Source: Escherichia coli
GTDB lineage: Bacteria > Pseudomonadota > Gammaproteobacteria > Enterobacterales > Enterobacteriaceae
Assembly (NCBI RefSeq): GCF_003018235.1
Contig: NZ_CP027437.1
Reading direction: 5' to 3' (one strand)
DNA: 64,000 bases
Each line of letters starts with the position of its first letter. The first letter of the stretch is position 1. The position numbers were made by a program. Shown here one piece after another: positions 61,558 through 64,000 of the stretch.

Positions 61558-64000
61558 TTACCCTGAACTGACGATACAACAAAGGCGCAACGCTTTTGAG
61601 ATAAAGGATCGATGCTTTCACTGCTTTTACCCTCTACCATTAGGCTAATTGCGACGAGAAAGGGACGACCTATGAATACTAACGTTTTTCGACTGCTCCT
61701 GCTGGGAAGCCTGTTCAGCCTTAGCGCCTGTGTGCAGCAAAGCGAAGTGCGACAGATGAAACACAGCGTCAGCACGCTGAACCAGGAGATGACGCAACTC
61801 ATTGACATCCTCCACGCCCTGAAGGACGTGGATCCCTGCTACGTTCAGGCTGTCGCCTGAATCATTTCGGTGGGTTCCTGCTTCAACGGGCGGCCTGACT
61901 GCACCATCCCTCCACAGGCAAGAACGGCGTGCCCCGCCGCTAAAATGTTACGAGCGCCATTTACATCGGCGTTCGCTGTATATCCACATACCTGGCATCT
62001 GAATTTACTTTGTGACAGGCGATTTTCTTTCGCTGTATGACCACAGCACGTGCAACGCTGGCTTGTGTACGCTGGCGAAACAGCAAGCACCTGACCGCCA
62101 CGCCAGAGCTGCTTGTACTCAAGCTGGCGGCGCATTTCATACCAGCCCTGATCCAGTATCGAACGGTTTAAACCTGATTTTGCCCGGACATTGCGCCCCG
62201 GCTGGCTGACCGTACCCGCTGCTGACTTTGACATGTTGCTGACCTTCAAATCCTCAATGACTATCATTGCGTGGTTTTTGCTGACGGTCGTTGTGACTTT
62301 GTGAAGGTAGTCCCTGCGGATATTTGCGATACGGGAATGCAGTCGCTGTATTTTGCGTTTCTGCTTCTGCCAGTTGTTGCTGAATTTGACCTTGCGGCTT
62401 AACTGTCGCTGAAGTCTCGCCAGCGTCTTCTGGTTTTTCTGAAAACTGTTTACAGGCTCAAAGACTGTGCCATCTGACAGCGTGGCGAGTTTAGCCACGC
62501 CAGCATCCAGCCCGACCATTGATGCTGAAGGGTGAACCGGAGTTGATACTTCACTTTCTGTCTGAATACTGATGTACCACTTACCGCAGGACTGGCTGAC
62601 CGTGACATTTTTCACAACACCCGTGACCTGACGGCTGTTCCGGTAGCGCATCCAGCCCAGTTTCGGCAGAAAAATACGGCTGTTTTCCTGATCGAGCTTA
62701 ACGCCCTGCGGGTAGCGGAATGCATCATTCTGTCCCCGCTTTTTGAATCGGGGAAAAGCAGCCCGCTTCTGGAAGAAGTTTTTGTAAGCCCGCTCAAGGT
62801 CTTTCAGTGACTGTTGCAATGGCTGTGACGGGGCATCTTTAAGCCATTGCGTTTCAGTGGCATTTTTCCACTCAACCAGCCAGGAAGCCATTTTCCCGTA
62901 AGGGATGTATTTATTACCGGCCTCATGATTCTCATTCTGAAGCGCCAGAGCACGATTGAAAACGAAACGACATGCGCCTGCGAAGCGCCTCATTTCACAC
63001 TCCTGTTGACCACCTGGTCTTAACTGGAATTTAAATGCCTGTAATCGTTTCACAGGTCAAATGATACTTTGGTCTATGAAAAAAGAAACCGATATCCGGC
63101 GTGGAAGGCATTGTGTTTTCCTGATGCATGTTCACCTGGTCTTTGTCACCAAATACCGACGCCAGATTTTTGACCATGACGCGACAGAAAAACTACGCAC
63201 TTACTTTTCAAATGTATGTGCTGATTTTGAAGCTGAACTGGTTGAAATGGATGGCGAACCAGATCACGTCCATTTGTTAATTAACTATCCTCCCAAACTG
63301 GCGATATCCAGTCTGGTAAACAGCCTCAAAGGCGTATCGGGTAGGTGACTGCGACGAGATCGACCAGATATTGCAGTCAGGTATTACTACAAAGGCGTTT
63401 TGTGGAGTCCTGGCTATTTTGCCAGTAGCTGCGGAGGTGCGCCAATATCCGTCATCCGCCAATACATTGAACAACAGCAAACACCTGGTCAGGTGGAAAA
63501 CCGCGCCTTATATCCCCGCCCTGAAGGACGGGGTTTTACGGCGCACCGGATAAAGAAACAGTCAAAATCACTCAGCAAAACAGGCTGAATGCAAAATCCA
63601 GCAGTGGGGTTTACCTTCTGCCTGGAGCGAAAACACCAGCAAGACTGGAAAGCCAGATCGGTACTTACGTATGTCGCTGGTGAATATTACGCCTGATACA
63701 GATGGCACCACCCTGACGCTACGTATTCAGGGCGAGTCGAATGATCCCTTGCCCGCATTCAGCGGAACTGTTGAATATGGGCAAATTCAGGGAACAATAG
63801 ACAACTTTCAGGAAATCAATGTGCAGAATCAATTGATTAACGCCCCTGCCAGCGTCCTCGCCCCTAGCGATGTTGATATTCCGTTACAGTTAAAGGGTAT
63901 TTCTGTGGATCAGTTAGGCTTTGTACGTATCCACGACATTCAACCTGTTATGCAGTAAACGTATCGCAGGGCGTTTTGTGCGTCCCGCAACATCTTTTCC

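Follow-up and report, generated by a model that had tools for sequence, protein, structure and literature searches.

The copy of yajI in this Escherichia coli genome is split by an insertion sequence (IS), and the part of the gene downstream of the insertion seems to change reading frame at a short run of T residues. The question that this locus raises is whether the frame change is a second, real lesion of the gene or an error of sequencing or assembly and, if it is real, how it came to be there. We analysed one stretch of 64,000 nucleotides from contig NZ_CP027437.1, here called the window. Our comparisons indicate that the frame change is very probably a genuine one-base deletion (TTT to TT) of single origin, located in the 3' part of yajI, a gene already destroyed by the IS. 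The features on which this depends are:

61672..61801, + strand: yajI 5' fragment, codons 1-43 and the first base of codon 44, with the lipoprotein signal peptide and lipobox LSAC (ORF list, K-12/empty-site junction)
61802..63549, - strand: IS200/IS605-family insertion sequence of 1,748 bp within yajI (K-12 and empty-site boundaries)
61845..63053, - strand: tnpB, an insQ-type RNA-guided endonuclease gene, intact, 402 aa (Pfam, NCBIfam, RefSeq annotation of relatives)
63061..63486, + strand: tnpA (Y1 transposase) pseudogene in two frames, 63061-63348 and then from 63400 (Pfam, PGAP)
63550..63958, + strand: yajI 3' fragment, beginning with bases 2 and 3 of codon 44 and running to the stop (alignments)
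63665..63666, + strand: deletion site, TT as against the reference TTT (codon 83, Leu TTA; alignments and a 61-nt query)
63671..63958, + strand: residual 95-aa open frame from Met85 of YajI, corresponding to the C-terminal beta-sandwich domain (ORF list)
63681..63683, + strand: premature TGA in the upstream frame, after five aberrant codons (YVCRW) past the deletion (translation)

Reading frames and lesions of yajI

Grin et al. (PMC3953254) describe YajI as a paralogue of SadB, an inner-membrane lipoprotein of Salmonella. They give it a predicted coiled coil at the N-terminus and a beta-sandwich domain at the C-terminus, know of no function for it, and place its gene between nrdR-ribD and tsx / yajC-secDF. 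This was the only relevant paper that our literature search on yajI returned. On the layout described there, the IS would cut the coiled-coil part of the protein and the frameshift at codon 83 would fall just ahead of the C-terminal domain region.

Removal of the IS and restoration of one T in silico gave an open reading frame of 540 nt and 179 codons, the product of which differs from K-12 YajI by two substitutions only, Q45K and A94T. The repaired protein matched Pfam PF11622 DUF3251 (E=4.6e-89, residues 20-176), NCBIfam PRK11530 (E=1.7e-95, residues 1-179) and PDB entry 2JWY, the NMR structure of 'lipoprotein yajI' (E=4.6e-98, residues 21-179). Its N-terminus, MNTNVFRLLLLGSLFSLSAC from 61672, was judged by eye to be a signal peptide with a lipobox cysteine. 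The gene also has the position expected for the family: nrdR (61072-61521) and ribD (59965-61068) are its left neighbours, and tsx, which is past the window end here, comes directly next in strains MEI003, NRZ14408 and CFSAN061763 and in K-12. Its frame is broken by the IS after codon 43 and by the 1-nt deletion at codon 83, and we therefore class it as a yajI pseudogene. Because the repair in silico yields a full-length YajI of 179 aa with just two substitutions, the IS insertion and the missing T are the only two lesions of yajI. This supports the original prediction that the gene has been inactivated twice, once by the IS and, barring a sequencing error, once by a 1-nt frameshift.

At the site itself, positions 63660-63669 read GGTACTTACG, with TT at 63665-63666. 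Translation of 63552-63680 gives KETVKITQQNRLNAKSSSGVYLLPGAKTPARLESQIGTYVCRW, which is the upstream-frame peptide KETVKITQQNRLNAKSSSGVYLLPGAKTPARLESQIGT followed by YVCRW, and the TGA at 63681-63683 then ends this frame. Translation from 63545, one base back, gives the second frame, which contains YLRMSLVNITPDTDG (downstream-frame peptide YLRMSLVNITPDTDGTTLTLRIQ) and runs on to VMQ and the TAA stop at 63956-63958. The two peptide strings quoted in the original prediction were thus recovered in different frames that meet at a short T-run, although the run had been placed at 63663..63666 and is actually at 63665-63666. The downstream frame had been called +1; relative to the upstream frame it is -1 (equivalent to +2), as expected for a 1-nt deletion, so that this correction concerns the labelling only. 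The yajI frame moves by one base after codon 82 as a result of the missing T, and the 3' fragment is 409 nt long in the window compared with 410 nt in relatives. Acting alone, the deletion would end YajI at residue 82 followed by YVCRW, so that the C-terminal beta-sandwich domain would be lost entirely.

The insertion sequence and other features of the window

When the yajI flanks are joined they read ...CAACTCA/ATAAAGAAAC... (the slash marks the junction), and the exact 64-mer across this point occurs as uninterrupted yajI in 281 genomes. Since the joined flanks are exactly the empty site, CTCA/ATAAAG, the insertion was clean and left no target-site duplication. Insertion of this kind is expected of the IS200/IS605 family. 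The element also carries the Y1 TnpA and TnpB genes of that family, and it has subterminal hairpin-forming direct repeats (61811-61831 and 63513-63533) in place of terminal inverted repeats. TnpB matched the Pfam domains OrfB_IS605, Cas12f1-like_TNB and HTH_OrfB_IS605 and the NCBIfam model guided_TnpB (E=3e-116). By contrast, positions 1-78 and 96-121 of the Pfam Y1_Tnp model are split over two ORFs in tnpA, which PGAP, the annotation pipeline of NCBI, labels 'internal stop; incomplete' in relatives. Of the 5,426 complete genomes of E. coli, 340 have the same yajI insertion. In the IS-carrying relatives, RefSeq annotates two partial DUF3251 / SadB-YajI pseudogene pieces around insQ/tnpB and a tnpA pseudogene.

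Several further observations concern the element. In every copy inspected at the yajI locus tnpB is intact but tnpA is broken, and the IS is therefore probably non-autonomous. An imperfect 18-nt direct repeat with copies 63 bases apart (CAAAGGCGTATCGGGTAG and CAAAGGCGTTTTGTGGAG; 63327-63407) spans the tnpA frame break and may be the trace of a small internal rearrangement that inactivated this gene. Members of the IS200/IS605 family insert 3' of an element-specific target motif of 4-5 nt; a possible motif of this kind is the minus-strand TTTAT at 63550-63554, which abuts the tnpA-side end of the IS and in place of which uninterrupted K-12 yajI has TTGAT. A search of 61000-64000 against Rfam gave no match at E<=0.01; no curated RNA family, those of TnpB-associated RNAs included, was thus detected in this interval or at the 3' end of tnpB.

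Elsewhere in the window, a pentapeptide-repeat gene (55669-56988, + strand) is a second frameshifted gene. It has 10 A residues at 56903-56912, where MEI003, OW967178 and MRSN346647 have AGAAAAAA; relative to these three strains the poly-A run reflects a G-to-A change and two extra A residues. The product is 439 aa in the window, compared with an intact protein of 523 aa in OW967178 and MRSN346647. In MEI003 this gene carries a different lesion: 8 bp are duplicated in tandem at the equivalent of window position 55840.

Relative to MRSN346647, the window also has small differences at 6731 (AA to A), 13789 (a C lost before an A-run) and 17679 (a 12-bp gap). On the MRSN346647 annotation these are intergenic, between tesB and ybaY, between an IS200 tnpA and decR, and between ybaV and fadM, respectively. 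An IS200 copy near 13790 in MRSN346647 has no counterpart in the window. Conversely, about 10.4 kb of the window (18146-28594) is missing from the ppiD/ybaV junction of MRSN346647. ORFs in this segment matched an IS110-family transposase (18328-19281), a Phage_GPA/G2P-type replication protein (19625-21604), DUF5455, Zot (25110-26432) and a secretin (26592-27929). These matches suggest that the segment is a filamentous (inovirus-like) prophage accompanied by an IS110 element.

Origin of the missing T

At the deletion site yajI of K-12 MG1655 (b0412) reads GGTACTTTACG, with TTT, and its product crosses the site in a single frame as ...ESQIGTLRMSLVNITPD... Pairwise and multiple alignments with CFSAN061763, NRZ14408, OW967178 and MRSN346647 contain one gap only at the join, TTT compared with TT. 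The difference at the T-run concerns a single base, in a gene with about 99% conservation elsewhere, and chance is not at issue. We also searched the same 5,426 genomes with a 61-base query centred on the deletion, which matched 5,424 of them. Identity was 100% in one genome, MEI003 (NZ_CP071263.1, assembly GCF_023612455.1), and at most 98.4% in the remaining 5,423; among the matches listed, those at 98.4% spanned 62 bases. A 61-base query that spans 62 bases means that those genomes have one extra base, that is, TTT. The alignment to K-12 that the original prediction had proposed as a check therefore favours a real difference, in that the reference has the extra T and is read in a single frame, as do 5,423 of the 5,424 genomes. 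A 40-mer spanning the deletion (GGAAAGCCAGATCGGTACTTACGTATGTCGCTGGTGAATA) had no matches in species-representative genomes. It also had none in metagenome contigs, a search with little power given that the wild-type 41-mer itself was in only four contigs.

MEI003, in which the yajI::IS allele has locus tags J0G23_RS20210-20225, is identical to the window throughout positions 60941-63864, a block that includes the IS with its broken tnpA as well as the TTT-to-TT deletion. Among the 5,426 genomes it is the sole one at 100.0% over this block of 2,924 bp, and the next best are at 99.8%. RefSeq/PGAP labels its yajI 3' fragment 'frameshifted; incomplete'. The window and MEI003 also have in common the alleles 61228G, 61237T, 62637G and 63963A, in which they differ from the other IS-carrying strains inspected. 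Outside the block the two differ by about 1.2% over the 25 kb compared, with 42 differences in 60001-60940 (ribD) and 5 in the last 136 bases (63865-64000). Because of this divergence, we regard the window and MEI003 as independent genomes. The best 25-kb match to the window among complete E. coli genomes is at about 99.0-99.2%. A literature search on strain MEI003 found nothing.

These data bear directly on the idea that the true sequence is TTT and that one T of the homopolymer was under-called in sequencing or assembly. The variant is extremely rare, being present in one of 5,424 genomes, and besides the window, whose genome is outside the complete-genome collection, only that one genome has it. 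Some nanopore basecallers err systematically close to methylated sites, and the T-run has a Dam site (GATC) 6 bp upstream. However, the run is merely 3 nt long, and the identical deletion is found in a genome that was deposited independently and is the sole one with the identical 2.9-kb haplotype. Two independent errors would have had to hit both haplotype-sharing genomes among the 340 IS carriers, and an artefact is for this reason unlikely. Small indels are also few over the roughly 53 kb of the window aligned to relatives, consisting otherwise of three intergenic ones (6731, 13789 and 17679) and the poly-A change in the pentapeptide-repeat gene, and MEI003 has no excess of them in the region either. 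For the window, this scarcity speaks against an error-prone assembly.

If the deletion is real, it could still have arisen twice, once in the lineage of the window and once in that of MEI003. Short homopolymers are slippage hot spots, and the 1.2% difference between the two genomes over 25 kb would fit separate events. Nonetheless, such a recurrence appears highly improbable when set against 2,924 identical bases and four common SNP alleles that are absent from the other IS-carrying strains inspected. Moreover, none of the 338 other IS-carrying genomes has the deletion, and the site is not visibly hypermutable.

Functional recoding, either as programmed ribosomal frameshifting or as expression of the 95-aa ORF (63671-63958) as a free C-terminal domain, can practically be discounted: this ORF is open from Met85 and covers the folded domain of 2JWY, but the frame change is missing from 5,423 of 5,424 genomes, GGTACTTAC (shift point GGT ACT TAC) contains no slippery heptamer of the form X XXY YYZ, the upstream fragment is without a start codon because 1.75 kb of IS lie between it and the promoter, start and signal peptide of yajI, and a domain begun at Met85 would be without signal peptide and lipid anchor. 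Programmed frameshifting was rejected on three of these grounds, namely lack of conservation of the shift, absence of a slippery site, and no point at which translation of the upstream fragment could start. The Met85 ORF would probably be predicted as well in genomes that carry the IS but not the frameshift, and its exact protein sequence would therefore not single out carriers of the deletion.

The reading that we prefer is therefore a genuine deletion of single origin, and the following course of events would account for it. An intact yajI allele with ...CTCA/ATAAAG... would have received a clean insertion of the IS at this point, which cut off the remainder of the gene from its promoter, start codon and signal peptide; this state would be the one common to the 340 complete genomes. 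Much later, one T would have disappeared from a site 115 bp downstream from the end of the IS, on the sub-haplotype found only in the window and MEI003, most simply through replication slippage in the T3 run. Such a loss would represent neutral pseudogene decay and would have no further phenotypic effect. We infer the order of events, the slippage mechanism and the neutrality alike. The order follows from the nested distribution, since the IS is present in 340 genomes and the deletion occurs only within those, and neutrality is suggested because the yajI fragment was already without promoter, start codon and signal peptide and could no longer be translated as YajI.

The mosaic similarity between the window and MEI003 suggests recombination breakpoints on either side of the nrdR-yajI::IS block. 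It is conceivable, though we consider it a long shot, that the dead yajI::IS allele has been passed between E. coli lineages by homologous recombination, perhaps promoted by homing-like cutting of empty yajI sites by TnpB. If so, the 1-nt deletion would be a natural tag for tracing the movement of yajI::IS.

Significance and comparison with other yajI alleles

The frameshift is already annotated in RefSeq on the identical sequence, and it is an instance of ordinary pseudogene decay. As a real second lesion of a gene already killed by the IS, it would bring no change in phenotype. For annotation, the two yajI pieces are best treated as one pseudogene that is both IS-disrupted and frameshifted. 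The deletion may also be of use as a rare marker of lineage or haplotype, since MEI003 alone shares it among the 5,426 genomes. The loss of yajI in hundreds of strains only confirms that the gene is dispensable.

Compared with yajI of K-12 (b0412; DUF3251 / SadB-YajI family, 2JWY), the window contains the same gene at the same locus beside nrdR. Unlike K-12 yajI, the window copy is a pseudogene, with the IS after codon 43 and one nucleotide lost at codon 83. The frameshift-free yajI::IS allele, found in NRZ14408, OW967178, CFSAN061763 and MRSN346647 among 338 further genomes, has the IS in the same position and orientation as in the window, likewise with a broken tnpA and an intact tnpB. By contrast with the window, these genomes have kept TTT, and their 3' fragment, annotated at 411 nt compared with 410, is read in one frame.
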